Source of the DNA: Candidatus Dormiibacterota bacterium
GTDB lineage: Bacteria; Vulcanimicrobiota; Vulcanimicrobiia; Vulcanimicrobiales; Vulcanimicrobiaceae
Reading direction: 5' to 3'
Length of the DNA: 43,561 nucleotides
Assembly (NCBI GenBank): GCA_035532035.1
Contig: DATKRS010000026.1
Coordinates: 1-43,561, forward strand
In this document: in pieces, positions 1 to 33,695 of the stretch
Layout of the letters: each line of letters starts with the position of its first letter
Position numbering within the stretch: position 1 is the first letter of the stretch
The notes under the pieces: model-generated
What the model was told of the DNA's origin: nothing
The model's database searches: none
What the model saw: only the letters and a program-made list of their open reading frames with translations
Made by a program: the position numbers and the translations under genes

Positions 1-74
1 TATGACACCTTGTAGCCGCCATAAACAGTCTTCGGTGACCGCGCAACAACATTTGCCTTAAAGGGGCGCATGTC

Positions 75-1445
75 GTGCGTTCGAATGAGGCGCACATGGC
101 GCGGCGCGACCGGTACGGAGCCTGGAGCCCTCTGCTGCTCCTCGTCTGCACGAGCGCCGCGGTAACGACCGCACAGTGCGTGATTCCGAGCGACATGGAG
201 CGCTATTGGCTCGCCTATGCCGGCGATTGGAGCCTCGCGCACGGCCGCATCCTCGAGTCGCTCCAGGGTTCCTGGTTTCCGAATCGTCCATGGGTGAATC
301 AGGAGTGGCTCGTCGCGATCGCCACGGCGTGGACGCGCGCGCACGGCCTCTACGTGCTGCTGGAGCTGCTCTTCGCCGCCGCGCTCGTCTTCGGCGTGGC
401 CTTCGTGGCGCTGGAAACCGTGCGGACGCGAACGCACCCGCTGATCGCCTGCGCACAGGTAGCGGCCACGGCCATCGGCGCCTTCTTCTTCGCGCAGGAT
501 CGCGCGCAGACGCTCGTGTGGGTGCTGCTGCCCTCGCTGATTCTCGTCTGGCGTCGCGCGCCGTGGGCGGCCGTGCCCCTAACGGCACTCTGGGCCAACG
601 TGCACGGCTCGTTTCCGATTGCCGTGGTGTGGATGCTGCTCCACCTCGACCGGCGACGCATAGCGCCGTTCGTGGCCGCCACGGCGGCGACGCTTGCGAA
701 TCCGCTCGGGTGGCGCCTGTGGATATTCACGATCGAGCTCGCGCGCAACGCCCGGCTCGCCGGCTATGTGAAGGAGTGGTCGCCGGCGCTGCTCACCTCA
801 ACCGGCATCGTCGTTGCGCTGCTCGCGCTCGCGCCGCTGTGGATGCGCCTCGCCGCAGGCGCGCGACTGCGTCGGCCGATTCGCTACGGCGACCTGCTCT
901 TCATCGCGGCGAGCGCGATCGGAACGATCGTTGCGATCCGCTACGCGATGCTGCTCTTCTTGGCGAGCGCGACGACGCTCGGCGACGCGCTGCGAACGCG
1001 CGCCAAGCCGATGCCGTTCGCAACGCGCGCCGCAGCAGCGTTCTTCAGCATCGTCCTCGTCATTCTCGCGCTGAAGAACATGCTCGCCGCCCCGACGCTC
1101 GTCGATCCGTGGTTTGGCAACCTCGAGAGCGGCGTCGACTTTACGGCGTGCGCGCCGTTTGTCCGCGGTAAACGCGTCTTCACCGATGCGCTCCAGGTCG
1201 GGAGCCTCATCGAGCTCGCCGGCGGAAGCGCGAACGTGGACGGGCGCATCGACGCGTTCCCACAGCGGGCGATTCACGACGCGTCGCACGTGCTCGTTCA
1301 CCCGCGTGACGCCGCCGCTGCCGCCGTCGTGCGGCACAGCGGCGCGCAGATGCTCGCTATCGATGGGCGCTTCGCGCCCGCCATCCGATCGTGGCGACTA
1401 GCGCGAACGTGCGGCAAGATCCGGCTCTACGCGCGCTCAGAGTGA
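75..1445 (+). CDS. polytopic membrane protein of unknown function (possibly GT-C-like glycosyltransferase/ligase fold)
   Basis: ORF track 75..1445. The sequence is very hydrophobic with at least 10 predicted TM helices and aromatic-rich loops (WANVHGSFP). I recognise no family motif. It converges on hemQ with an 8-nt overlap. Confidence 0.5.
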   Translation: MRSNEAHMARRDRYGAWSPLLLLVCTSAAVTTAQCVIPSDMERYWLAYAGDWSLAHGRILESLQGSWFPNRPWVNQEWLVAIATAWTRAHGLYVLLELLFAAALVFGVAFVALETVRTRTHPLIACAQVAATAIGAFFFAQDRAQTLVWVLLPSLILVWRRAPWAAVPLTALWANVHGSFPIAVVWMLLHLDRRRIAPFVAATAATLANPLGWRLWIFTIELARNARLAGYVKEWSPALLTSTGIVVALLALAPLWMRLAAGARLRRPIRYGDLLFIAASAIGTIVAIRYAMLLFLASATTLGDALRTRAKPMPFATRAAAAFFSIVLVILALKNMLAAPTLVDPWFGNLESGVDFTACAPFVRGKRVFTDALQVGSLIELAGGSANVDGRIDAFPQRAIHDASHVLVHPRDAAAAAVVRHSGAQMLAIDGRFAPAIRSWRLARTCGKIRLYARSE

Positions 1446-22952: not shown

Positions 22953-24170
22953 TCAAAGCAGGGCGAGCTGCTCGAACGTGCCGTTGAGCACGGGTGCCGA
23001 CGGACGACCGAGCCAGCGTTCGAGCACGGTCGCATACACGTTGCGGAAATCGGTCGTGAAGCGCACATTGCCCATGTTCGTCGCCGCGAGGCTCGGAGCA
23101 TCGCCGTAGATACCGCCCTTCGTGCCTCCCCCGACGAGGAAGAGGGGCGAGGCCTCACCGTGGTCGGTTCCGCGGCTTCCGTTCTCTTCGATGCGCCGAC
23201 CGAACTCGCTAAAGGTCATCGTCAGCACGCGCCGGTCGTTTCCGTGTGCAGCAAGATCGTCGTAGAATGCCTTGAGCGCATCCGAGAACTCGCCGAGGAG
23301 GCGATTCTGTACGGCGATTTGATTGACGTGCGTGTCGAACGAGCCGTGCTGCACGTAGATGACCTTCGTGCCGATGTTGCTTCCGACGATCTGCGCCGCA
23401 AGCGCCAGGCTTCGCCCGAGCGGCGTCGCCGGATACGCCGCGCTCGTCGTGTAGCCGGCGATCAAACGCGGCAGTTCTTCGGAACCGCGCTGCGAGCGAT
23501 CTTCGATCTCCATGACGTGAGCGAGATACGGTGAAGAGAACGGGAGGCGCTCGTCACGCACCAACGCCGTGAAGGCCCTGCGCTCCATCGGGTTCCGATC
23601 GACGCGTAAGCCGTATGCGGCTTCGCTCGCAATCGCCGGAACGTCGACCTTCGTTCCGACCATGACTTCCGGAAGAATCTGCGCGAGTGAGATGCCGTTG
23701 AAGAGATTGGCCTGCGGAAGGCCGGCTTCGTCGAGATAGCGCCCGAGCCAGCCCGTATGCTCGTACCGGTCGGGCGCTGCCGTCTGCCAGATCTCGGTGG
23801 AGCGGAAATGCGAATGATCGGGATTCGGATACCCGACGCCCTGCACGATCGCCACCATGCCCTTGTCGTACAGCGCCTTGAACGACGTCATCTTCGGGTT
23901 GAGTCCCAGCTGCGCATCGATTGCCAGAACGTCGCTTCGCGCAATCGCAAGCGAGGGCCGAACGCGGTAGTAATCCGCGTCGCCGTGGGGCACGACGCAG
24001 TTCAGGCCGTCGTTCCCGCCCTGCAAGTTGATGAGGACCAAGCAACGATTCTGCGCTCCCGGCAGGCCGGGGAGGGGCGCCGCCGCGAGCGCGCGCGCGA
24101 AGATGTGGTCCGCGTTGGCCACGACCGTGATGCCGGAGAGCGCGCCGGCGACGAATCGCCCTCTTTTCAT
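22953..24170 (-). CDS. DUF1501 family protein (sulfatase-like fold, secreted)
   Basis: Track ORF 22953..24794. The protein begins at MKRGRFVAGALSGITVVA (ATG 24170, overlapping the DUF1800 TGA as ATGA). It has the DUF1501 blocks (LINLQGGNDGLN, HGSFDTH, TDHG). Confidence 0.8.
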   Translation of the reverse strand: MKRGRFVAGALSGITVVANADHIFARALAAAPLPGLPGAQNRCLVLINLQGGNDGLNCVVPHGDADYYRVRPSLAIARSDVLAIDAQLGLNPKMTSFKALYDKGMVAIVQGVGYPNPDHSHFRSTEIWQTAAPDRYEHTGWLGRYLDEAGLPQANLFNGISLAQILPEVMVGTKVDVPAIASEAAYGLRVDRNPMERRAFTALVRDERLPFSSPYLAHVMEIEDRSQRGSEELPRLIAGYTTSAAYPATPLGRSLALAAQIVGSNIGTKVIYVQHGSFDTHVNQIAVQNRLLGEFSDALKAFYDDLAAHGNDRRVLTMTFSEFGRRIEENGSRGTDHGEASPLFLVGGGTKGGIYGDAPSLAATNMGNVRFTTDFRNVYATVLERWLGRPSAPVLNGTFEQLALL

Positions 24171-25660
24171 CGGAGCTGGAACGCGGGCATGGCCATCGTC
24201 AGGTATGCCGCTCCGTGAATGCGCTCTGGAAAGTTTTCGACACCCAGCATGGCGAGCGCAGAGGTTCCTTCGCCCATGAGATATCCTTTGAGCTGCGCGT
24301 AGGACGCGGGTGACGCGTCGTCTTGCAGCAGCGCGTCGACGAGCGCGTGCGTCGCGCGCGCCGGGTCCATCGGAATGCCGTTCAACCACGAGGATGCCCC
24401 CATGATTTGCGCGTTGACGAGTCCTGCGAGGAAGTTCTGCCGTGCGATCATCATCTGGCTCGTCAGCCAGTTCTCGCCTCCCGGCCAGCCGGCGACGTTC
24501 GGCGGATAGAAGAGTATCTGACCCATCGCGCGCATCGCCGGAAGCGCGCTGCGACCGATCGTCGGAACGCCCAGCGCCTTGTAGGTGCCGACGACGAACT
24601 CGGCCGGCCCTTTCACGAGCGCGCGGTACGCGCGCTGCGAGTAGAACACGTTGCTGCGCAGCAGCGCCGACACGACCGGCGCCAGCTCGTAGTCGTGGCG
24701 CTGCAGCGCTTCGGCGACGCCGTCGACGAGCTCCGGCTCGGGATTGTCGTAGACGAAAAGACCGAGTAGAGAGGCGGCAAAGAAGCGCGCGCATTGCGGC
24801 TTCGCAAAGATGACGTTCACGACGTCGTCGCCGTCGAAGTTTCCCCGCCGGCCGAGGAACGTCTTCGTGCCGTCATCGTGGAGCCGCGGCGCAAAGAACG
24901 ATTGGCCGGTGATCCGAATCACGCGCCATCCCGTCCACGCGCGCGCCGCCTCGCGCACGTCGTCCTCGGTGTAGTGGTCGACGCCGAGCGTGAAGAGCTC
25001 CATCAGCTCGCGCGCGTAGTTCTCGTTCGGATGCGACGCGACGTTCAACGCGTTGTCCAAGTAGAGGAGCATCGCCGGGTCTTTCGAGACCGCGCGCGTC
25101 AGCTCGCGGAGATTTCCCAGCGCATACCGCCGGAAGAGCTCGTTCTGGCCGTAGGCCATGGCCGGCGAGACGCCCTTTTGAATCGCCGCGGTCGTGAAAT
25201 GCCCGTGAAAGAAGAGCGCCATCTTCTCCTGCAGCGGCGCCGGCGTCGCGAGCATGCGGTTGAGCCACCACAGCTGCAACGAGAGGATCGATCGCACTTC
25301 CTGCCGCCGCACCTGCTTGAAGAGCTGTCGCCGCGCGTCGCGGGATAGATCGCGCAGCCCCCTTGGGCCGTACTGCGAGAGTAGCGTGGAGGGATCGTAG
25401 ACGTTCTCCGGCGCGGGCAAGGCGTTCGTCGAGGGAAAGCGGACGAGGCGCTCGACCGCGTCGCCGGCCGCCATGCCGGTAAAGCTGCGGAGCTCGTCGG
25501 GCGTTGCGCCGAAGCCGGCTCGCCGCAAAAGGTGCGCCGCGCGGCGCGCATCCAGGACGCCGTCGTACGGTCGTAACGCGCGGGCGACGTCGAGGGAGCC
25601 TGACGGACGCAGGACGCCGGCGACGTCGAGGTGCGAGGTTTGCGCCCTCGTTGCGATCAT
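24167..25660 (-). CDS. DUF1800 family protein
   Basis: ORF track 24167..25660. It has the conserved DUF1800 signature (HLLRRAGFGATPDE, HGHFTT, YLDN..N....NENYARELMELFTLG). It forms the canonical pair with the downstream DUF1501 gene. Confidence 0.8.
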   Translation of the reverse strand: MIATRAQTSHLDVAGVLRPSGSLDVARALRPYDGVLDARRAAHLLRRAGFGATPDELRSFTGMAAGDAVERLVRFPSTNALPAPENVYDPSTLLSQYGPRGLRDLSRDARRQLFKQVRRQEVRSILSLQLWWLNRMLATPAPLQEKMALFFHGHFTTAAIQKGVSPAMAYGQNELFRRYALGNLRELTRAVSKDPAMLLYLDNALNVASHPNENYARELMELFTLGVDHYTEDDVREAARAWTGWRVIRITGQSFFAPRLHDDGTKTFLGRRGNFDGDDVVNVIFAKPQCARFFAASLLGLFVYDNPEPELVDGVAEALQRHDYELAPVVSALLRSNVFYSQRAYRALVKGPAEFVVGTYKALGVPTIGRSALPAMRAMGQILFYPPNVAGWPGGENWLTSQMMIARQNFLAGLVNAQIMGASSWLNGIPMDPARATHALVDALLQDDASPASYAQLKGYLMGEGTSALAMLGVENFPERIHGAAYLTMAMPAFQLR

Positions 25661-25745
25661 AGGCGTAGTCTAGCGCGTGGACCGCCAAAGCGCGAGTATC
25701 TCGGTGGAAGGTCTAACGATTGCTTCATTGGAACGCGCTCGCTCG

Positions 25746-27293
25746 ATGGACCCAAAGCGCAACGCCGCTCGAATGGAAGCGCTGGTCGAGCAGCTGCGAG
25801 AGCATCTGCAGAAAGCGCGCGACGGCGGCGGACCCGACGCAACGCAACGGCACCGCTCGCGCGGCAAGCTCACCGCGCGAGAACGCGTCGACCGGCTCGT
25901 CGATCCGGGATCGGATTTTCTCGAAATCGGCGCGCTTGCGGCAGACGGCATGTACGACGGCGACTCGCCTGCGGCAGGGATGATCGCCGGCATCGGCGTG
26001 GTCGAATCGAAGCGCTGCGTCATCGTCGCCAACGATGCCACCGTCAAAGGCGGCACGTACTACCCGATGACGGTCAAGAAGCATCTGCGCGCGCAGGAGA
26101 TCGCGGAGCAGAACGCACTCCCGTGCATCTATCTCGTCGACTCCGGCGGCGCATTCTTGCCGCTTCAGGCCGAGGTTTTCCCCGATCGCGATCATTTCGG
26201 GCGCATCTTTTACAACCAGGCACAGATGTCGTCCAAGGGCATCGCGCAGATTTCAGCCGTCATGGGATCGTGCACGGCCGGCGGCGCCTACGTGCCGGCG
26301 ATGAGCGATGAGACGGTCATCGTGAAGGGCACGGGCACGATCTTTCTCGGCGGGCCGCCGCTCGTGAAGGCGGCGACCGGCGAAGAAGTGACTGCCGAAG
26401 AGCTCGGCGGCGGCGACGTGCACACGCGTCTGTCCGGCGTCGCCGATTATTTGGCCGACGACGACGCGCACGCCCTCGCGCTCGTGCGGGGCATCGTGCG
26501 CGATCTGCGTCCCGACCGTCCCGCGCCGTGGGAACGCGTCGCAGCGGAGCCGCCGAATGCCGATCCCCGCGACCTCTACGGCATCGTTCCGAGCGACCCC
26601 CGGCACGGCTACGACGTTCGCGAGGTCATCGCGCGCATCGTGGACGCATCGCGGTTCCACGAGTTCAAAGAACGCTACGGCGCGACGCTCGTCTGCGGAT
26701 TCGCGCGCATCGAGGGTCACCCGATCGGAATCCTCGCAAACAACGGAATCCTCTTCAGCGAGAGCGCTCTCAAAGGCGCGCACTTCATCGAGCTGTGCAC
26801 GCAGCGCGGAACGCCGCTGCTCTTCCTCCAAAACATCACGGGCTTCATGGTCGGCAAAGAGTACGAGAATCGCGGCATCGCCAAGGACGGCGCGAAACTC
26901 GTCACGGCCGTCGCGTGCGCCGGCGTGCCGAAGTTCACCGTGATCGTCGGCGGAAGCTTCGGTGCCGGAAACTACGGCATGTGCGGCCGCGCTTACTCGC
27001 CGCGTCAGCTCTGGATGTGGCCGAACGCGCGCATCAGCGTCATGGGCGGTCAACAAGCTGCAAGCGTGCTCTCGACCGTCAAAGGCGAGATGACGCCGGA
27101 GAAAAAAGCCGCGTTCGAAGCGCCGATTCTCGAAAAGTACGAGCGCGAAGGAAGCCCGTACTACTCGACCGCGCGCCTGTGGGACGACGGCATCATCGAC
27201 CCGCTCGACACGCGGCGCGTCATCGCGCTAGGCCTGGACGCGGCCAGTCAGGCGCCCGTGACGCCTACGAGATTCGGCGTTTTCAGGATGTAG
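25746..27293 (+). CDS. liuB: methylcrotonoyl-CoA carboxylase carboxyltransferase (beta) subunit
   Basis: Track ORF 25677..27293. It is collinear from end to end with Pseudomonas LiuB/MccB ([65 protein letters not shown]-terminal PTRFGVFRM). The start [14 protein letters not shown] at ATG 25746 matches the homologue's N-terminus. Confidence 0.9.
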
Positions 27294-27308
27294 GAGCTGT
27301 GCTATACT
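27280..27308 (+). promoter_or_regulatory. candidate promoter of the Fur-like gene: extended -10 TGcTATACT (27300..27308) with a weak -35 TTTTCA (27280..27285), giving a near-leaderless transcript
   Basis: Read directly from the sequence. The -10 element ends 10 nt before the ATG at 27319, and there is no Shine-Dalgarno sequence. Confidence 0.3.
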
Positions 27309-27318
27309 ACGCAGCGCG

Positions 27319-27723
27319 ATGACCACGTCCGGCGAGCCGGCTCGCCTTCCGAAGAACTACAGACTCGTCTACGACATCATCCGCGGCGCCGGCCAGGGCG
27401 TTCACTTCACGATGAACGACGTGTTTGCGCACGCGAAGCGTAGGCGCCCGAGAATAGGCTTCACCACGGTCTACCGCGGCATTCAGCGGTTGCGCGATCT
27501 CGGGTGCATCGACGAGATCGAGCTACCGGGAACGGACAGCGCCGTTTACGAGCTCAAGGGCGAGCCGCACGCACACTTTCGCTGCGAGCGATGCGGGAAG
27601 GTCGAGGACGTGCCGTTCGTGCTCCCGGCGAGAACGGTCGACGCGCTCGCCGCGCGAACGGGCGTGACAATCGACGCGGCGATCATCACGCTGAGCGGCT
27701 CGTGCCGCAACTGCCGCGTCTAG
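27319..27723 (+). CDS. Fur-family transcriptional regulator (PerR/Fur-like, with fewer His ligands than Zur)
   Basis: ORF track 27319..27723. It has an N-terminal winged helix (GFTTVYRGIQRLRDLGCI), then HAHFRCERCGKVEDV and a C-terminal CRNCRV, which together form a Cys4 structural zinc site. It lacks the HHHH cluster seen in the zur copy at 42363. Confidence 0.75.
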   Translation: MTTSGEPARLPKNYRLVYDIIRGAGQGVHFTMNDVFAHAKRRRPRIGFTTVYRGIQRLRDLGCIDEIELPGTDSAVYELKGEPHAHFRCERCGKVEDVPFVLPARTVDALAARTGVTIDAAIITLSGSCRNCRV

Positions 27724-27730
27724 AGGCTCG

Positions 27731-28417
27731 CTAGGGAACCTTCAGCGCAAAATACGACGGCGACTCGGTCCATTTGCCGTGCGCGTAGCGCAGATACGCG
27801 ACGGCCCGTTCTTTCGTCGGGCAGCACAGCGGCGCCGTGGCCGAGTAGTACGGGCCGATCAGCCGTATCGCGTCGCCCGTCGAGCCGTGCACGAGTGAAG
27901 CCGCGAGCGCGCAGCCGTTCGTCACGACCGCGACCGGGCGAAAATGCTGCGCCGTCCAATCGTACGTGAAGACCGCGACGCTCGCACCTCCGCAATCGGC
28001 AGAGGACTCGTGGCTCTGCACGACGAGATTCTGCACGCCGGCGCGCACGAGCTCGCCCGCTCCCACGATGTGCAGCGACTGCAGCGGAAGCCAAAGACCG
28101 CCTTGAGCGCGCGTGACGCGCGAGAGCAAAGGGCCGTTGCCCGGCGACCGATACTGCAGTTTGTAGGTAGCGGTATCGAAGTTGATCGCGTAGACCGAGA
28201 GATACCATTGATATGCCGAGCCGCCGAGATGGACGCGGCTCGCGACGGCGCGCCACTGGCTCTGCATCCCTTCGCCCGCGGGATAGAAGAGCGCCGACTG
28301 AACGATTTGGCCCGGCGGCCGCGGCGAGAACGTGTAGTGTGGCGGCTCCGCGGCCGCCGCGGGGAGCAGCAGCGCAACGGCGAGCGCGGCGGCGACGCTT
28401 AAATTCCTGCGTACCAT
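27731..28417 (-). CDS. secreted protein of unknown function (228 aa, 7 Cys)
   Basis: Track ORF 27731..28768. The start is at MVRRNLSVAAALAVALLLPAAAA (ATG about 28417, GGAGGA 12 nt upstream). The protein has no recognisable motif. It is the third gene of the cytochrome b / Moco operon. Confidence 0.55.
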   Translation of the reverse strand: MVRRNLSVAAALAVALLLPAAAAEPPHYTFSPRPPGQIVQSALFYPAGEGMQSQWRAVASRVHLGGSAYQWYLSVYAINFDTATYKLQYRSPGNGPLLSRVTRAQGGLWLPLQSLHIVGAGELVRAGVQNLVVQSHESSADCGGASVAVFTYDWTAQHFRPVAVVTNGCALAASLVHGSTGDAIRLIGPYYSATAPLCCPTKERAVAYLRYAHGKWTESPSYFALKVP

Positions 28418-29136
28418 TCGTATCCTTGATCCTCCCAATAGCCACCGTGACCGCCGGCGATTCGCGAGAATCCGCCGACGAGTGAGATTCGATTGACCCA
28501 TTTTGCGCTCTTGTAACCCAACTGCGTAGCAACGCGTAGCCGCACGGGCGCCCCGTGATCGGGATCGAGCGCCGCGTCGTCGAGCCGCAACGCGAGCAGC
28601 GTCTGCGGATGGTGTGCCTGCACGAGATCGAGGCTCTCGTAGTACGGGACCCCCGAATCGTCGCGGTCCATGCAGTGGAATACGGCGTAGCGCGCCGCGG
28701 GCGTCGGACGCGCCGCATCGATCACCGCGCCGAGCCGGACGCCGCTCCATTTTCCGATCACGCTCCACCCTTCGACGCAGTCATGCCGGGTGATCTGCGT
28801 CGTCTGCCGGTACCGCTCGAGATCGCCGAGCGAGAGCGAGAGCGGCCGTTCGACGGCGCCGTCGACGACGAGGCGATAGGTGCGAAAGTGCGACGCGAGC
28901 AGCGCTTCGTACCGGGCGTCGTTCGGCGTCGCAAAGCCATTGATGCGGAAGACCGGCGCGACGGCCGACTCTGGATACTCTCGCGCCATGCCGCCGCTGG
29001 CAAGCGCGTAATCGAGCCTTTCGGCAACGCTCAGCACGTTGCGAACGCCGTTCGAGTTATTGAGTGCCGTTCCTATCGGCGAACAGCCCGCGAGCGCCGC
29101 CGAAACCGACGTCGCAATGAAGATCTGACGTTTCAC
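28399..29136 (-). CDS. sulfite-oxidase-fold molybdopterin oxidoreductase (MsrP/YedY-like), probable lipoprotein
   Basis: Track ORF 28399..29871. The C-terminal 245 aa carry the Moco-domain signature HDCVEGWS plus GKWSGVRL and the APVRLRVATQLGYKSAKWV tail. The start is at VKRQIFIATSVSAALAGC (lipobox LAGC), where GGAGG lies 10 nt upstream and the GTG at 29136 overlaps the cytochrome b TGA. Confidence 0.75.
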   Translation of the reverse strand: MKRQIFIATSVSAALAGCSPIGTALNNSNGVRNVLSVAERLDYALASGGMAREYPESAVAPVFRINGFATPNDARYEALLASHFRTYRLVVDGAVERPLSLSLGDLERYRQTTQITRHDCVEGWSVIGKWSGVRLGAVIDAARPTPAARYAVFHCMDRDDSGVPYYESLDLVQAHHPQTLLALRLDDAALDPDHGAPVRLRVATQLGYKSAKWVNRISLVGGFSRIAGGHGGYWEDQGYEWYAGI

Positions 29137-29924
29137 GCTGACGGAGCCTCCTTTTCCACGAACCACCCGGTGATCATCGAACGCATCTGGTTGACCACGC
29201 CCTGCGTTGCCACTTGAAAGACGTGAATGCCGAAGAAGGCGATGAGGGCGAGCATGCCCGCGAAGTGCCAGAGACGAGCGAACTGCCGTCCGCCGAAGAC
29301 CACGGTCAGCGGCTGCGCAATCGCGTCGATTCCCGGTGAGAGCGCGAGACCGGTCAGCACGACGAGCGGCGCGATGACGAATGCGACGACCGTGTACGCG
29401 GCTTTCTGCAGCGGGTTGTACTCGTCGTACGGGGGCGGCGTCTTGCGCAAGCGCAAGTAGTACGCCTGCATCGGCCACAGCTTGCTCAGATCGCTGCGGG
29501 TGAGCAGCATCTTGCGCAAATTGCCTTTGACGGCGCTCGACGCGAGCCACGCGAGCCAGCACAGCACTGCAACCCACGCAAAGAAGAAATGCCAGCGCCG
29601 GCCGTCGGCGAGGTCTTGATAGGCCGGAATCGTGATCCAGCCGGGAAAGGCGCGCGGGCCTTTTCCTCCCATGCCGTCGTCGGTCCATCCGAGCCAGCCG
29701 GTCGTCGTGAACGCGTGCCCAAAAATCGTCGTCGTTCCGACGCCGTCGGCCGGCGAATCGATCGAGAGCACGCGATGGGCGGGGCTCGAGGCGTCCGACG
29801 CGTCCAGATAGGGCGCCGCATCGAAGATCTGCAAACCGCTCGAGACGAGCACCGCAAATGCCACGGCCCATATCCAGTGGCTCAAGCGCATCGTACGCGT
29901 GTACCGATAGCGCGGGCTGCTCAT
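29133..29924 (-). CDS. membrane b-type cytochrome (prokaryotic cytochrome b561 / Ni-hydrogenase b-cytochrome-like)
   Basis: Track ORF 29133..30068. The start is at MSSPRYRYTRTMRLSHWIWAVAFAVLVSSGLQIF (ATG 29924; alternative ATG at 29891). It has 4-5 TM helices with conserved His positions (SHW, HFFFAWVAV, HFAGM, GIHVFQ). Confidence 0.7.
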   Translation of the reverse strand: MSSPRYRYTRTMRLSHWIWAVAFAVLVSSGLQIFDAAPYLDASDASSPAHRVLSIDSPADGVGTTTIFGHAFTTTGWLGWTDDGMGGKGPRAFPGWITIPAYQDLADGRRWHFFFAWVAVLCWLAWLASSAVKGNLRKMLLTRSDLSKLWPMQAYYLRLRKTPPPYDEYNPLQKAAYTVVAFVIAPLVVLTGLALSPGIDAIAQPLTVVFGGRQFARLWHFAGMLALIAFFGIHVFQVATQGVVNQMRSMITGWFVEKEAPSA

Positions 29925-29985
29925 GGCCGCAAGTATACGCGATTCCAGGCGGAAACGGACAGGGGGCCGAAGCGAAAAACTCCTG

Positions 29986-30765
29986 ATGGCCGAGGTTCTT
30001 ACGTGTGCGGTGGAGCGCGGGATCGCGACGGTGGCGCTCGCGCGTCCTGCGGTGCGCAATGCATTCAACGCGGAGCTGATCGCCGCACTACGCGCTACCT
30101 TTGACGAGCTCTCCGAGCGGGCGGACGTGCGCGCCGTCGTGCTCGCGGGAGAGGGGCCCGTATTCTGCGGCGGCGCGGACGTAGGGTGGATGCGCGCCGC
30201 GCTCGACCTCTCCTACGACGAGAACGTCGCCGACGCAGAAGCGATGAGCGACATGTTTCGATCCATCGACCGCTGCGCGAGGCCGGTGGTCGCGCGCGTC
30301 CAAGGCGCCGCGCTCGGCGGCGGCGCGGGGCTCGTCGCCGTCTGCGACGTCGCGATCGCGAGCGCCGATGCAACGTTCGGCTTCACGGAGGTGAAGCTCG
30401 GCATCATCCCGGCCGTCATCTCTCCCTTCGTGCTCGCGAAGATCGGGGCGTCGCACGCGCGCGCGCTCTTCGTGACGGGCAGGCGCTTCGACGCCGCACA
30501 CGCGCGGGAGATCGGTCTCGTGCACGCGGTCGTTCCCGAGCCGTCGCTCGACGCCGCCGTCGACGGCGTGCTCGACGAGCTGCGTACCGCAGCTCCAACG
30601 GCCGTACGCGCGATCAAGGCGCTCGTCGCCGACGTTCTCGGCGCTTCGTATGATGCGTCGCGCGGCCTCACGTCGAGCGCGATCGCCAAGCAGCGCACGA
30701 GTGAGGAAGGTCAAGAGGGTTTGCGCGCGTTCCTCGAGCGGCGCCCCGCAGCGTTCGTCGAATGA
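29986..30765 (+). CDS. liuC: enoyl-CoA hydratase/isomerase family protein (likely methylglutaconyl-CoA hydratase)
   Basis: Track ORF 29923..30765. The crotonase fold begins at MAEVLTCAVERGIATVALARPAVRNAF (ATG 29986), followed by GEGPVFCGGADV and the oxyanion region. It overlaps the liuD start as ATGA. The specific function is inferred from its flanking liuB and liuD. Confidence 0.8.
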   Translation: MAEVLTCAVERGIATVALARPAVRNAFNAELIAALRATFDELSERADVRAVVLAGEGPVFCGGADVGWMRAALDLSYDENVADAEAMSDMFRSIDRCARPVVARVQGAALGGGAGLVAVCDVAIASADATFGFTEVKLGIIPAVISPFVLAKIGASHARALFVTGRRFDAAHAREIGLVHAVVPEPSLDAAVDGVLDELRTAAPTAVRAIKALVADVLGASYDASRGLTSSAIAKQRTSEEGQEGLRAFLERRPAAFVE

Positions 30766-32693
30766 TCTCGCGTCTGCTCATCGCGAACCGCGGCGAGATC
30801 GCCGTGCGGATCGCTCGCGCCGCGCGCGAGATGGGAATCGTCCCACTCGGCATCTACTCGCAAGCCGACGCGGACGCCTATTTCCTCGCGTACGTCCACG
30901 ACGCGCGCTGCATCGGCCCCGCGCCCGCCGCGCAATCGTATCTCGACATCGCGGCGATCCTCGAAGCAGCGCGGGCGATGAACGCCGACGCACTCCATCC
31001 CGGCTACGGCTTTCTCTCCGAGAACCCGTCCTTCGCCACGGCGGTGCACGATGCCGGAGCGATCTTCGTCGGGCCGCCCGCGGACGCCATGGCCGCGATG
31101 GGGAGCAAGATCGAAGCGAAGCGGCGCGCGCGAGAGGCCGGCGTTCCGACGCTTCCCGGCTACGACGGGAGCGATCAGTCGCCAGCGCGCCTTCGCGAGG
31201 AAGCGGCGCGGATGGGATTCCCCCTTTTGATCAAGGCGAGCGCCGGCGGCGGCGGTCGCGGCATGCGCGTCGTGACGTCGCCTCGAGAGCTGGACGACGC
31301 GCTTGCATCTGCCAGGCGCGAAGCGGCCGGCGCCTTCGGCGACGACACGCTCTTGCTCGAGCGCTACCTCGAGAACCCGCGGCATATCGAGTTCCAAATC
31401 CTCGCCGATGCATTCGGCACGACGTTGCATCTCGGCGAACGCGAATGCTCGATTCAGCGGCGCCATCAGAAGATCGTCGAGGAGGCGCCGTCGGTCGCGT
31501 TGTCGGCGCAACTGCGCGCCGAGATGGGTGCTGCAGCGGTGCGCATCGCGTCGAGCGTCGGATACGTCAACGCCGGCACCGCAGAGTTCATGCTCGACGC
31601 GAGCGGGTACTACTTCCTCGAGATGAACGCGCGCCTGCAGGTGGAGCATCCCGTTACCGAAGCCGTGCACGGCATCGACCTCGTGCAATGGCAGCTGCGC
31701 ATCGCATCGGGCGAGCGCCTGACGCTGCGCCAAGAGGACGTCGCGCCGCGCGGCTGGGCCGTCGAGATGCGGGTCACCGCCGAGGATCCGGCGCACGGGA
31801 TGCTGCCGTCGGCGGGCTGCATCTCCGCGTGGCAGCCGCCGGAAGGCCCCGGCGTGCGCGTCGACAGCGGCGTCGCGGCGGGCAGTACGGTCGGTCTCGA
31901 TTACGATTCGATGCTCGCAAAACTCATCGTGCATGCGAGCGATCGCGCCTCCGCCATCGCGAAGATGGAGGTCGCACTCGACGATTTCCGGATCGCCGGG
32001 ATCCGCTCGAATCTTCCGTTGCTCGCGTGGATCGTTCGCGACGAGGCCTTTCGCTCGGGGGAGATCGGAACCGCATTTCTCGCGCAACGCCTCGACGAGT
32101 CGCGCTTCGCTCACGCGCCGGTTTCGAAGGACGCGCTCGTGCTCGCCGTTGCAAAGCTGCTCGTCGAGGACGCGCTGCCGTGGCGCATCGGCGGCATCGG
32201 GTGCCCGATCGTTCTTGCCGCGCGCGACGAGCGCTTCTACGCGTCGGCGAGCCGCACCGCGCAGCGCGATGCCTGGCGCGTGAGCGGCGACGTCCAGGGG
32301 CTGCTGCAGGTGCGGCGGCACGACGGCGTGATCGCCGCAACGCTCGGTGACGCGAGCGTTACGGGGCACGCGGAGCTCGACGCGTGCGGCGTCCTCACAC
32401 GCGTCGACGGGCGAGAGTACGCATTCGCTTTCGCGCAGCCGCCCGATGCTAGCGTGCGCTCGAGCGGCGCTGCCGAAGCGAACGGCACGGTGACCGCGCC
32501 TATGCCCGGACGCGTCGTACGCGTTGCCGTCGCGCCCGGTGAGGACGTCGCGCCGCATCAGCTGCTGATCGTGCTCGAAGCGATGAAGATGGAGCACCGC
32601 ATCGAGGCCTCGCTCGCGGCGACGGTTCGTTCCGTTCTGGTCGGCGAAGGGCAGATCGTCGCAGGCGGCACGCCGCTCGTCGAGCTGGCCTAA
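30762..32693 (+). CDS. liuD: methylcrotonoyl-CoA carboxylase alpha subunit (biotin carboxylase plus BCCP domain)
   Basis: ORF track 30762..32693. It has a biotin carboxylase ATP-grasp domain (ISRLLIANRGEIAVRIARAARE, GYGFLSEN, GGGGRGMRVV) and a C-terminal biotinyl domain with EAMKME. Confidence 0.9.
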   Translation: MISRLLIANRGEIAVRIARAAREMGIVPLGIYSQADADAYFLAYVHDARCIGPAPAAQSYLDIAAILEAARAMNADALHPGYGFLSENPSFATAVHDAGAIFVGPPADAMAAMGSKIEAKRRAREAGVPTLPGYDGSDQSPARLREEAARMGFPLLIKASAGGGGRGMRVVTSPRELDDALASARREAAGAFGDDTLLLERYLENPRHIEFQILADAFGTTLHLGERECSIQRRHQKIVEEAPSVALSAQLRAEMGAAAVRIASSVGYVNAGTAEFMLDASGYYFLEMNARLQVEHPVTEAVHGIDLVQWQLRIASGERLTLRQEDVAPRGWAVEMRVTAEDPAHGMLPSAGCISAWQPPEGPGVRVDSGVAAGSTVGLDYDSMLAKLIVHASDRASAIAKMEVALDDFRIAGIRSNLPLLAWIVRDEAFRSGEIGTAFLAQRLDESRFAHAPVSKDALVLAVAKLLVEDALPWRIGGIGCPIVLAARDERFYASASRTAQRDAWRVSGDVQGLLQVRRHDGVIAATLGDASVTGHAELDACGVLTRVDGREYAFAFAQPPDASVRSSGAAEANGTVTAPMPGRVVRVAVAPGEDVAPHQLLIVLEAMKMEHRIEASLAATVRSVLVGEGQIVAGGTPLVELA

Positions 32694-32795
32694 GGAGCCT
32701 CTTCGTCAACGCTCTCGTCTGGCCGTACACGCTGCGAGCGATTCTGCGCTTCACCGGGGCAAAAGAGCTCCAGGCGGCGAACGCCTAAGACAACC

Positions 32796-33695
32796 GTGTT
32801 ACCGAAGAACGTCACCGTCGTCGAGGTCGGCGCGCGCGACGGATTGCAGAACGAGAAGAGCGTCGTCGCAGCGAGCGACAAGATCGCCTTCATCGACTTG
32901 CTCTCCGAGAGCGGCCTGCGCGTCATCGAAGCGACCTCGTTCGTCAGCCCGCGAGCGATTCCACAGCTTGCCGACGCGGAACGGGTCTTCACCCATATTC
33001 GCAAAGCTCCCGGCGTACGCTATCCGGTGCTCGTGCCGAACCTCAAAGGCTACGAACGGGCGAAAGCGTGCGGTGCCGATGCGATTGCCGTCTTCACCGC
33101 TGCATCGCAAGCCTTCACCAAGCGCAACATCAACATGACGGTCGAGGAGTCGATCGCGACCTTCGCCGACGTCGTCCGGCGGGCTAAAACAGACGGCGCG
33201 TGGGTGCGCGGTTACGTCTCGACCGCCTTCGGCTCGCCTTTCGGCGACGCCGTGACGCCGCGGATGGTACGCGACGTCTGCGTGAAGCTCGTGGAGCTCG
33301 GCTGCGACGAGATCTCGGTCGGCGATACGATCGGCGTCGGCGTACCGACGCAAGTCGACGAAATCGTGCCGCTGCTCGCCCGGGAGATTCCCCTCGAGCG
33401 CCTGGCCTTTCACTTCCACGACACGCGCGGAACCGCGCTTGCAAACGTGTACGCGGCGCTGCAGCACGGAATCACGATCTTCGACGCCTCTGCGGGCGGG
33501 CTCGGCGGTTGTCCGTACGCTCCCGGCGCAACGGGCAACGTCGGGACCGAGGACGTGCTCTACATGCTCGCCGGCATGGGCATCGAGACCGGCGTCGACC
33601 TCGCTCGCGTGCGCGCCGCCTCCCGCTTCGTTCGCGGCGTCATCGGTCACGAGCTTACGAGCAAAGCGTTCCAGGCGTTGGAGGCGAACGGGTAG
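32796..33695 (+). CDS. liuE: hydroxymethylglutaryl-CoA lyase
   Basis: ORF track 32796..33695. It carries the HMGL-like TIM-barrel motifs (VTVVEVGARDGLQNE, GCDEISVGDTIG, FHFHDTRGTALANVYAALQHGITIFDASAGGLGGCPYAPGATGN). Confidence 0.9.
   Translation: MLPKNVTVVEVGARDGLQNEKSVVAASDKIAFIDLLSESGLRVIEATSFVSPRAIPQLADAERVFTHIRKAPGVRYPVLVPNLKGYERAKACGADAIAVFTAASQAFTKRNINMTVEESIATFADVVRRAKTDGAWVRGYVSTAFGSPFGDAVTPRMVRDVCVKLVELGCDEISVGDTIGVGVPTQVDEIVPLLAREIPLERLAFHFHDTRGTALANVYAALQHGITIFDASAGGLGGCPYAPGATGNVGTEDVLYMLAGMGIETGVDLARVRAASRFVRGVIGHELTSKAFQALEANG

Follow-up and report, generated by a model that had tools for sequence, protein, structure and literature searches.

The methionine sulfoxide (Met-SO) reductase MsrP is served by an adjacently encoded membrane di-haem b protein (PMC12525009). 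In uropathogenic Escherichia coli (UPEC) CFT073, the genes c3566-c3568 are induced by peroxide through OrhKR, and mutants of c3566 and c3567 are more sensitive to tert-butyl hydroperoxide and survive more poorly in macrophages; the authors called c3566-c3568 a putative Msr system and treated C3566 as an MsrQ homologue (PMC8550376). SigF/NrsF-type regulation of a methionine-rich (Met-rich) peptide together with YedYZ or MsrPQ has been reported for YedY1Z1-MrpX of Azospira suillum (PMC4436054) and BcrXQP of Brucella (PMC8315932). Sco3746 of Streptomyces coelicolor is a haem-molybdenum cofactor (Moco) protein targeted by both the Sec and the twin-arginine (Tat) pathway, with five transmembrane domains (TMDs), four haem histidines, a Tat motif before the last TMD and then the Moco domain (PMC5449189). 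Here we describe a locus that bears a likeness to these systems, in a stretch of 43,561 nucleotides (hereafter the window) from a Candidatus Dormiibacterota bacterium (contig DATKRS010000026.1, assembly GCA_035532035.1), in which three coupled genes encode a cytochrome b, a Moco subunit and a secreted protein, referred to as g3. Loci from other genomes are cited by number (L001 onwards).

In its cytochrome b and Moco genes the window has an unremarkable example of a two-gene module that is widespread among bacteria. We consider it probable, if well short of certain, that the pair constitutes a two-component periplasmic oxidoreductase which fulfils the role of MsrPQ but relies on another membrane partner, g3 being a separate protein that the pair does not require; a quinol-driven, membrane-tethered periplasmic MsrP-type reductase is the likeliest function. 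The proposal builds on domain identities, haem and molybdenum ligands, fold, type of export signal, gene pairing and genomic contexts, all of them observed. A preliminary description of this DNA, made from its sequence alone, had presented the locus as an undescribed variant of the MsrPQ-type systems, a claim that cannot be maintained: the pair is very common and annotated by PGAP, and the homologous UPEC pair has been published as an H2O2-induced putative Msr system (PMC8550376).

The Moco protein matched PF00174 (E=2.5e-33) as its sole Pfam domain, with no match to a dimerisation domain, and has more than 8000 homologues in the database. Its best NCBIfam model was MsrP (the equivalog NF003767), at 91 bits against a cut-off of 207; SorA gave 48 bits (cut-off 600), SoxC 51 bits (cut-off 420) and SorT 16 bits (cut-off 570). 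MsrP was also the top named Moco family for its relatives (68-106 bits), with SorA and SoxC lower. Because MsrP is the best model and its cut-off is missed by far, the Moco family is placed as a sister family of MsrP rather than as the MsrP equivalog. When compared with solved structures, the protein matched YedY (1xdq, E=4e-16) with the molybdenum-ligand cysteine aligned; Cys120, within RHDCVEGWS, corresponds to the ligand Cys102 of E. coli YedY (RMRCVEAWS) and was invariant in 29 homologues. The core of the AlphaFold2 model, with a predicted local distance difference test (pLDDT) score of mostly 80-97, gave YedY (1XDY/1XDQ) as its top Foldseek match, ahead of SorA and the sulfite oxidases. 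The preliminary description's MsrP/YedY-like label is thus borne out by the NCBIfam model, the structure match and the CVE(G/A)WS motif.

Sulfite oxidases carry an anion-binding C-A-G-N-R-R motif at the active site, whereas the fifth residue past the molybdenum-ligand cysteine of the Moco protein is serine, not arginine. The scores, the missing dimerisation domain and the missing arginine pocket all place the protein outside the sulfite dehydrogenases SorA, SoxC and SorT; it is a Moco domain of the sulfite-oxidase fold that lacks a dimerisation domain and carries its cysteine in C-V-E-x-W-S.

The N-terminus of the Moco protein reads MKRQIFI...LAGC in the window, and the family consensus, M-K-R-R-L-F-x-A-S...L-A-G-C, has the make-up of a twin-arginine lipoprotein signal. 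The lipobox cysteine was present in 90 of 94 homologues and the RR motif in at least 62 of the 94, and TIGR01409 matched the Microvirga member; in the window and its nearest relatives the second arginine has been lost (KRQ). The motif RHDCVEGWS, the LAGC lipobox, the KRQIFI segment and the length of 245 aa had all been pointed out before and are all present. KRQIFI, then called weakly Tat-like, can be described more closely as a degenerate copy of the family consensus, and the conservation of the lipobox upholds the earlier designation as a lipoprotein, predicting a lipid-anchored rather than a soluble enzyme. At the other end of the protein, the tail GGYWEDQGYEWYAGI (window 28399..28450; alignment columns 229-249) is nearly invariant in the family and was left unplaced in the AlphaFold2 monomer model (pLDDT <50). 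A conserved hydrophobic C-terminus is important for the activity of YedY (PMC4228395), and in the present family the tail may serve to dock the Moco protein onto its cytochrome b partner.

The cytochrome b matched PF01292 at E=2.9e-24 (86.3 bits, above the gathering cut-off of 30.1). Its top NCBIfam matches were the b-type cytochromes of hydrogenases and formate dehydrogenases, below their cut-offs, and no match to MsrQ or to a ferric reductase was returned by Pfam or NCBIfam at E<=1, in agreement with the earlier statement that the partner is of the PF01292 FdnI/HyaC type and not MsrQ/YedZ. H16, H112, H220 and H234, the last two 14 residues apart, were at least 99% conserved among 84 homologues. 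With the haem-ligand pattern of FdnI, which we take as the reference, these four histidines are predicted to be the ligands of two b haems. A conserved periplasmic loop of ~75 residues lies between TM1 and TM2, and a sequence search of solved structures returned nothing significant for this subunit. We propose that the cytochrome b is the quinol-linked electron conduit to the Moco subunit.

The Moco subunit would receive its cofactor in the cytoplasm, be exported by Tat and be lipid-anchored at Cys18, remaining next to the cytochrome b at the external surface of the membrane. This cytochrome would draw electrons from the quinol pool and pass them over its two b haems, held by the four histidines, to the molybdenum centre, which would most likely reduce Met-SO carried by peptides or proteins of the envelope; another possible substrate is a related S- or N-oxide. 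Quinol as donor, the reductive direction and the substrate are all inferred in this scheme. As to activity, a quinol-driven reduction of Met-SO is suggested, by analogy, by the contexts of related loci and by the genetics of the UPEC homologue. In this genome g3 would be a separate secreted beta-rich protein that shares a transcript with the pair.

In order to gauge the spread of the module, species-representative genomes were searched with the Moco peptide motifs TRHDCVEG and QLGYKSAK, and the gene was found in at least 597 of them. Among the matches listed, Eremiobacterota showed 52-68% identity, and Alpha-, Beta-, Gamma- and Deltaproteobacteria, Nitrospirota, Methylomirabilia and others ~47-59%; Rhizobium, Phyllobacterium, Dyella, Salinicola and Pollutimonas are cultured carriers among them. 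Of 80 fetched loci, 77 had a cytochrome b homologue as the gene immediately preceding Moco, the three exceptions being contigs that end early. The window has the arrangement of the C3566/C3567-type module, in which a PF01292 gene lies directly upstream of, and coupled or adjacent to, the gene for a PF00174 lipoprotein of ~245 aa; in the window the two overlap in GTGA. The pairs of E. coli, Microvirga and Rahnella were assigned to the Pfam families of the window pair. On plasmids, PGAP names the products 'cytochrome b/b6 domain-containing protein' and 'molybdopterin-binding protein' or 'molybdopterin-dependent oxidoreductase'.

Several related loci place the pair among genes with a bearing on methionine oxidation. 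On a Microvirga ossetica plasmid, sigF-nrsF(DUF1109) is divergent from a series comprising an MXKDX Met-rich peptide (TIGR02953), cytochrome b, Moco, msrA and msrB. Secreted Met-rich peptides adjoin the pair in ten loci (L039, L047, L051, L068, L073, L080, L086, L087, L089 and L095). Secreted peptides with 16-26% Met flank it in Rhizobium tubonense, two Phyllobacterium genomes, metagenome-assembled genomes (MAGs) of Xanthobacteraceae, Steroidobacterales and Nitrospirota, Rahnella (L095) and E. coli. The sigF/nrsF genes occur near the pair in six loci and msrA/msrB in three (L056 and L069 among them). Because only a minority of proteobacterial loci have them, the Met-rich peptide and the stress regulator are viewed as accessory rather than defining. 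These links nevertheless give a testable function to thousands of genes named only 'molybdopterin-binding protein'.

Other surroundings recur as well. TetR regulators, not stress sigma factors, adjoin many proteobacterial pairs. A common proteobacterial order is TetR, a secreted 208-aa protein without family, cytochrome b, Moco and a DUF308 membrane protein, as seen in Agrobacterium, Rhizobium and Variovorax; Salinicola, Pollutimonas, Dyella and an Enterobacterales MAG have the 208-aa protein, which is unrelated to g3, next to the pair without the rest of this order (for both groups together, L085 2739..6760; L094; L097; also L041, L048, L070 and L083). E. coli and Klebsiella IncF plasmids, along with the UPEC chromosome, carry a homologous pair beside a two-component system. 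In CFT073, RefSeq marks c3566 (L089 3976..4574; NC_004431.1 3415551..3416149) as a frameshifted pseudogene. Actinobacteria have the two modules in fused form: on the Rhodococcus qingshengii plasmid pdjl-6-4 (L096 2610..4232), a single 540-aa protein fuses PF01292 and PF00174, and is encoded near ctaD, an Rrf2 regulator and a globin-domain protein.

The third protein, g3, was correctly described before as 228 aa long, secreted and without a recognised family; the seven cysteines then attributed to it, on the other hand, are four, seven being the number of its histidines, and it has one internal Met. All four cysteines were invariant across 43 aligned homologues, in the motifs ADCG, NxC and PLCCPTK, the last with a vicinal CC, and g3 is probably disulfide-bonded. 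It had no Pfam or NCBIfam match, and nothing significant was obtained with it in a sequence search of solved structures. The LppP/LprE family PF14041 gave sub-threshold matches to 8 of the 43 family members (best E=0.005) and matched one distant relative at E=6.6e-4, whereas the g3 of the window did not match it. In a collection of 5.8 billion sequences 114 homologues were found, with source names that were all Eremiobacterota or that of a likely mislabelled MAG, and a profile search of 1.84 billion proteins yielded 87 representatives; g3 is 99% identical to a protein carrying the name Candidatus Tyrphobacter, by which the source, an uncultured bacterium, is placed near Tyrphobacter in the Eremiobacterota.

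With respect to its linkage with the pair, g3 lies downstream of the pair in ~16 of 26 Eremiobacterota loci and in none of ~58 loci of other phyla. When metagenome loci containing g3 were considered, 30 of the 34 with at least 2.5 kb of upstream sequence had a full-length Moco gene ahead of g3. No gene separates Moco from g3 in the window and in L092; an alpha/beta hydrolase gene lies between them in at least ten loci, and L093 has there the gene of a 207-aa protein that is unrelated. Two loci, L011 and L013, have no g3, the gene for the beta subunit of methylcrotonyl-CoA carboxylase (MCC) directly following the pair, and L008 retains only a 40-aa fragment of g3. Synteny of g3 with the pair, proposed earlier as a test of their linkage, is frequent but not obligatory, in part the very outcome that had been named as refuting it. 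Because the whole neighbourhood is syntenic across the phylum, the linkage may be inherited rather than functional.

The most telling comparison is with L090 and L091, close relatives in which g3 is 82% identical. There the cytochrome b promoter region runs into codon ~194 of the Moco gene, and the frameshifted 3' remnant of that gene is followed by an intact g3; this is a clean ~1.4-kb deletion of the redox pair which leaves g3 on the presumed operon promoter. A second variant without the pair, L098, has the enoyl-CoA hydratase (ECH) gene 160 bp from g3. The ratio of nonsynonymous to synonymous substitution rates (dN/dS) for g3 was 0.27 between the window and L090 and 0.25 between the window and L092, where the pair is kept, pointing to purifying selection on g3 also where the pair has been deleted. 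Full-length g3 with all its motifs also stands on its own in L109, with phosphoesterase and TAP-like hydrolase neighbours, and in L140, where GGDEF, haem peroxidase and metallophosphoesterase proteins are the neighbours. Since g3 is confined to Eremiobacterota, is kept after deletion of the pair and occurs in unrelated contexts, we regard it as a co-transcribed passenger and not as a core subunit. By these comparisons g3 appears lineage-specific to Eremiobacterota, evolutionarily separable from the pair and not a required component of the enzyme, and the three-gene unit appears to be a lineage-specific juxtaposition. What g3 does define is a small conserved family of secreted proteins specific to Eremiobacterota.

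Some observations on the neighbours of g3 may be added. Secreted alpha/beta hydrolases recur beside it (L001 5013..5999, L003 4914..5948, L109 4702..6216 and ~20 more loci); an esterase-like gene is directly upstream of g3 in many Eremiobacterota, and the TAP-like hydrolase gene is directly downstream in L109. This adjacency may be the sole hint to the function of g3. In L140 the peroxidase (2..1357) is bacterial but homologous to the haem peroxidases of animals (PF03098, E=6e-104), its gene being located ~1.4 kb upstream of g3 with the GGDEF gene in between. Proteins without family among the neighbours (207 aa in L093, twice 214 aa in L109, 208 aa in L085) were considered as g3 paralogues and none matched the g3 profile. 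P0307 (589 aa), a candidate Moco-g3 fusion, was rejected as the frameshift-riddled translation of a poor assembly, and a role of g3 as a Met-rich sink was likewise rejected on account of its one internal Met.

Several points weigh against an MsrP-type reductase served by the pair alone. In Eremiobacterota loci, that of the window included, the pair was nowhere found beside a Met-rich peptide, msrA/B or sigF/nrsF, and the leucine-catabolism genes that surround it there say nothing about its function. Tat export of the window's own Moco protein would follow from the family rather than from its own KRQ sequence. The frameshift marked in c3566 is a caveat on the published deletion and complementation phenotypes in UPEC, and no biochemical assay of any family member of the cytochrome-b561 type was found in the literature searched. 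Finally, the frequent linkage to Moco (30/34) and the 19-nt gene overlap leave room for g3 to have a functional, if non-essential, link with the pair.

The absence of Msr-related genes from the Eremiobacterota context is also what would be expected if the pair were a quinol-dependent periplasmic reductase of a small S-oxide, N-oxide or other oxidant, serving detoxification or respiration rather than protein Met-SO. YedY itself reduces dimethyl sulfoxide and trimethylamine N-oxide weakly (PMC4228395). The family scores far below the MsrP equivalog cut-off, such that specificity may have diverged, and TetR regulators take the place of stress sigma factors at many proteobacterial loci. We nonetheless think this unlikely, as in Alpha- and Gammaproteobacteria and in Nitrospirota the pair is recurrently linked to msrA/B and to secreted Met-rich peptides, which points to Met-SO for at least part of the family. 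The pair could also run in the oxidative direction, as a periplasmic dehydrogenase of sulfite, another sulfur compound or an aldehyde that delivers electrons to the quinone pool. HyaC/FdnI-type PF01292 cytochromes usually pass electrons from a periplasmic dehydrogenase to quinone, the sulfite-oxidase fold commonly oxidises its substrates, and SorA, SoxC and SorT were secondary hidden Markov model and structural matches. Against this stand the best match, which was always MsrP/YedY, a reductase; the YedY-type C-V-E-G-W-S in place of the sulfite-oxidase motif; the lack of both a dimerisation domain and a cytochrome c partner; the association of related loci with Met-rich peptides, msrA/B and oxidative-stress regulators instead of sulfur-oxidation genes; and the UPEC phenotype, which is one of protection from oxidative stress. 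Oxidative operation strikes us as slightly less likely still.

The preliminary description had suggested that g3 is an accessory subunit or a dedicated substrate, and a dedicated three-component system in which g3 is one or the other, or a redox sink that is the cysteine counterpart of the Met-rich peptides, would account for the 19-nt overlap of the g3 start with the Moco end in the window and L092, the pair upstream of g3 in most loci with enough upstream sequence, and the four invariant cysteines with their vicinal CC. Lineage-specific secreted proteins also sit beside the pair elsewhere, namely MXKDX peptides and the 208-aa protein of Rhizobiaceae, Variovorax and Salinicola. Such a system is difficult to reconcile with an intact g3 under purifying selection after loss of cytochrome b and Moco, with the occurrence of the pair without g3, both at the corresponding position in Eremiobacterota and in hundreds of species of other phyla, with a hydrolase or 207-aa protein inserted between Moco and g3 in many genomes, and with g3 in the unrelated contexts of L109 and L140; the scarcity of Met speaks against a Met sink, and the phylum-wide synteny of the leucine-catabolism (liu) neighbourhood would explain the linkage by plain inheritance. 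We therefore think it unlikely, slightly more so than either a change of substrate or of direction. Least probable of all, in our estimate, is that the module is a general service enzyme paired repeatedly with lineage-specific secreted clients (MXKDX peptides, the 208-aa protein, g3); if true, g3 would represent a new kind of periplasmic client that is sacrificed or redox-cycled, or else a factor for assembly, and could work alone as well. An MsrP-type reductase made up of cytochrome b and Moco subunit, with g3 as a separate protein, remains the explanation that we prefer.

Features of the locus and their coordinates in the window.
Feature	Position	Strand	Description
Cytochrome b gene (263 aa)	29133..29924	-	PF01292, di-haem, FdnI/HyaC type
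Moco gene (245 aa)	28399..29136	-	PF00174, MsrP/YedY-like lipoprotein
g3, third gene (228 aa)	27731..28417	-	Secreted all-beta protein, Sec-type, four invariant Cys
Fur-family regulator gene (134 aa)	27319..27723	+	PF01475; convergent with g3
Divergent intergenic region (61 bp) between cytochrome b and enoyl-CoA hydratase genes	29925..29985	.	Presumed operon promoter

The genes listed in the table are real and not chance open reading frames (ORFs), as the Moco protein and g3 have homologues and g3 is under purifying selection. The close coupling of three same-strand genes noted earlier was confirmed: the TGA stop of cytochrome b and the GTG start of Moco overlap in GTGA, with AGGAGG 10 nt 5' of the GTG, and the ATG of g3 lies 19 nt inside the 3' end of the Moco gene. 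The intergenic region is presumed to hold the operon promoter, and is kept in the deletion variant L090 (4806..4860), where it runs directly into what is left of the Moco gene, with g3 following. The hexamer TATACT, which overlaps a GTATAC palindrome, stops 7 nt short of the start codon of cytochrome b, and reading of the 61 bp showed no Shine-Dalgarno sequence ahead of that ATG; because of these two features, the operon mRNA may be leaderless. A scan of 27200..30200 for consensus promoters and terminators returned no minus-strand promoter, and terminators at chance level only.

The cluster is flanked by leucine-catabolism genes encoding the beta and alpha subunits of MCC, ECH and 3-hydroxy-3-methylglutaryl-CoA (HMG-CoA) lyase. 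Across Eremiobacterota a block of HMG-CoA lyase, MCC-alpha and ECH diverges from cytochrome b, Moco, a variable position and g3, and these in turn converge with MCC-beta, so that a periplasmic redox module is found inside a leucine-catabolism cluster throughout the phylum. The slot that splits this cluster into HMG-CoA lyase/MCC-alpha/ECH and MCC-beta (window 25677..33695; L001-L026, L090-L093) is variable, containing cytochrome b and Moco with or without an alpha/beta hydrolase, the 207-aa protein, g3 and Fur. Further along, at 22953..25660 on the minus strand, a 497-aa ORF (24167..25660) and the ORF upstream of it are a candidate DUF1800/DUF1501 pair, by synteny with L090 and L001, where the conserved pair adjoins MCC-beta.

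The convergent Fur-like gene had been called PerR/Fur-like. Its membership of PF01475 was confirmed (E=1.7e-17; 64 bits, cut-off 23), whereas the PerR subtype was not, since PerR, although the best NCBIfam match, scored 52 bits against a cut-off of 200 and is a weak assignment. The gene lies beside g3 in the lineage of the window only (window, L090-L092, L098 and L099), being absent from at least 80 other loci, and still adjoins g3 where the pair has been deleted. A role as dedicated regulator of the operon is unsupported, given that it is lineage-restricted and stays after the deletion.

When set against described systems, the pair resembles E. coli MsrPQ (YedYZ), with which it shares a periplasmic Moco enzyme of the sulfite-oxidase fold, the CVE(A/G)WS cysteine, the lack of a dimerisation domain and an adjacently encoded di-haem b protein in the membrane; MsrP has a Tat signal, as the family consensus would predict for the Moco subunit too. 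The partner in MsrPQ is the ferric-reductase-domain protein MsrQ, whereas that in the window is a PF01292 cytochrome b; furthermore, the Moco subunit of the window is a lipoprotein, ~50-80 aa shorter than MsrP, and its cytochrome b comes first in the gene order. A 2026 review of sulfoxide reductases mentions MsrPQ only. Proteobacterial members of the window's family share the niche of YedY1Z1-MrpX and BcrXQP, with sigF-nrsF divergent from genes for a Met-rich peptide and a reductase, but the published Azospira and Brucella systems are YedYZ/MsrPQ, and the window locus has neither sigF/nrsF nor a Met-rich peptide; the paper on the EcfF regulon of B. japonicum makes no mention of a Moco/cytochrome b pair. 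The 540-aa Rhodococcus fusion, a homologue of the window's Moco protein, matches the architecture of Sco3746 as published. The window differs in having two separate genes and in replacing the Tat-dependent last TMD of Sco3746 with a cleavable lipoprotein signal; because the fused form resembles the dual-targeted architecture, the Moco domain would be membrane-tethered in every form.

In UPEC CFT073, where orhK-orhR is divergent from c3566-c3567-c3568-hlyCABD, a PF01292 cytochrome b gene is followed by that of a PF00174 Moco lipoprotein, just as in the window. The product of c3567 (~247 aa) shares 32% identity with the Moco protein of the window (E=3e-35) and has an LTGC lipobox and a GGYWED C-terminal end; both Moco proteins were best matched by MsrP and fell below its cut-off. 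For the cytochrome b, the comparison was made with the plasmid-borne E. coli homologue of L087 (199 aa, PF01292) rather than with c3566 of CFT073, giving 23% identity (E=2e-7) with the haem-histidine regions aligned; the E. coli protein lacks the ~60-aa insertion in the periplasmic loop. The E. coli operon includes a Met-rich MXKDX peptide (c3568) and a divergent two-component regulator, of which the window has neither, having g3 instead. Pairs from Rhizobiaceae, Microvirga and Dyella with a 'molybdopterin-binding protein' are nearer relatives of the window's (~50% identity) than the UPEC pair. On its own, the locus is one more copy of a common, biochemically uncharacterised module and adds little; its main value lies in the functional assignment at the level of the family and in identifying the partner in C3566/C3567 as of the cytochrome b561 type. 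That the UPEC partner is of the FdnI/HyaC type and not MsrQ was not pointed out in the literature searched. Together these comparisons indicate that the UPEC C3566/C3567 system belongs to a very large family that spans phyla and in which the membrane partner, instead of MsrQ, is a cytochrome b of the FdnI/HyaC type.

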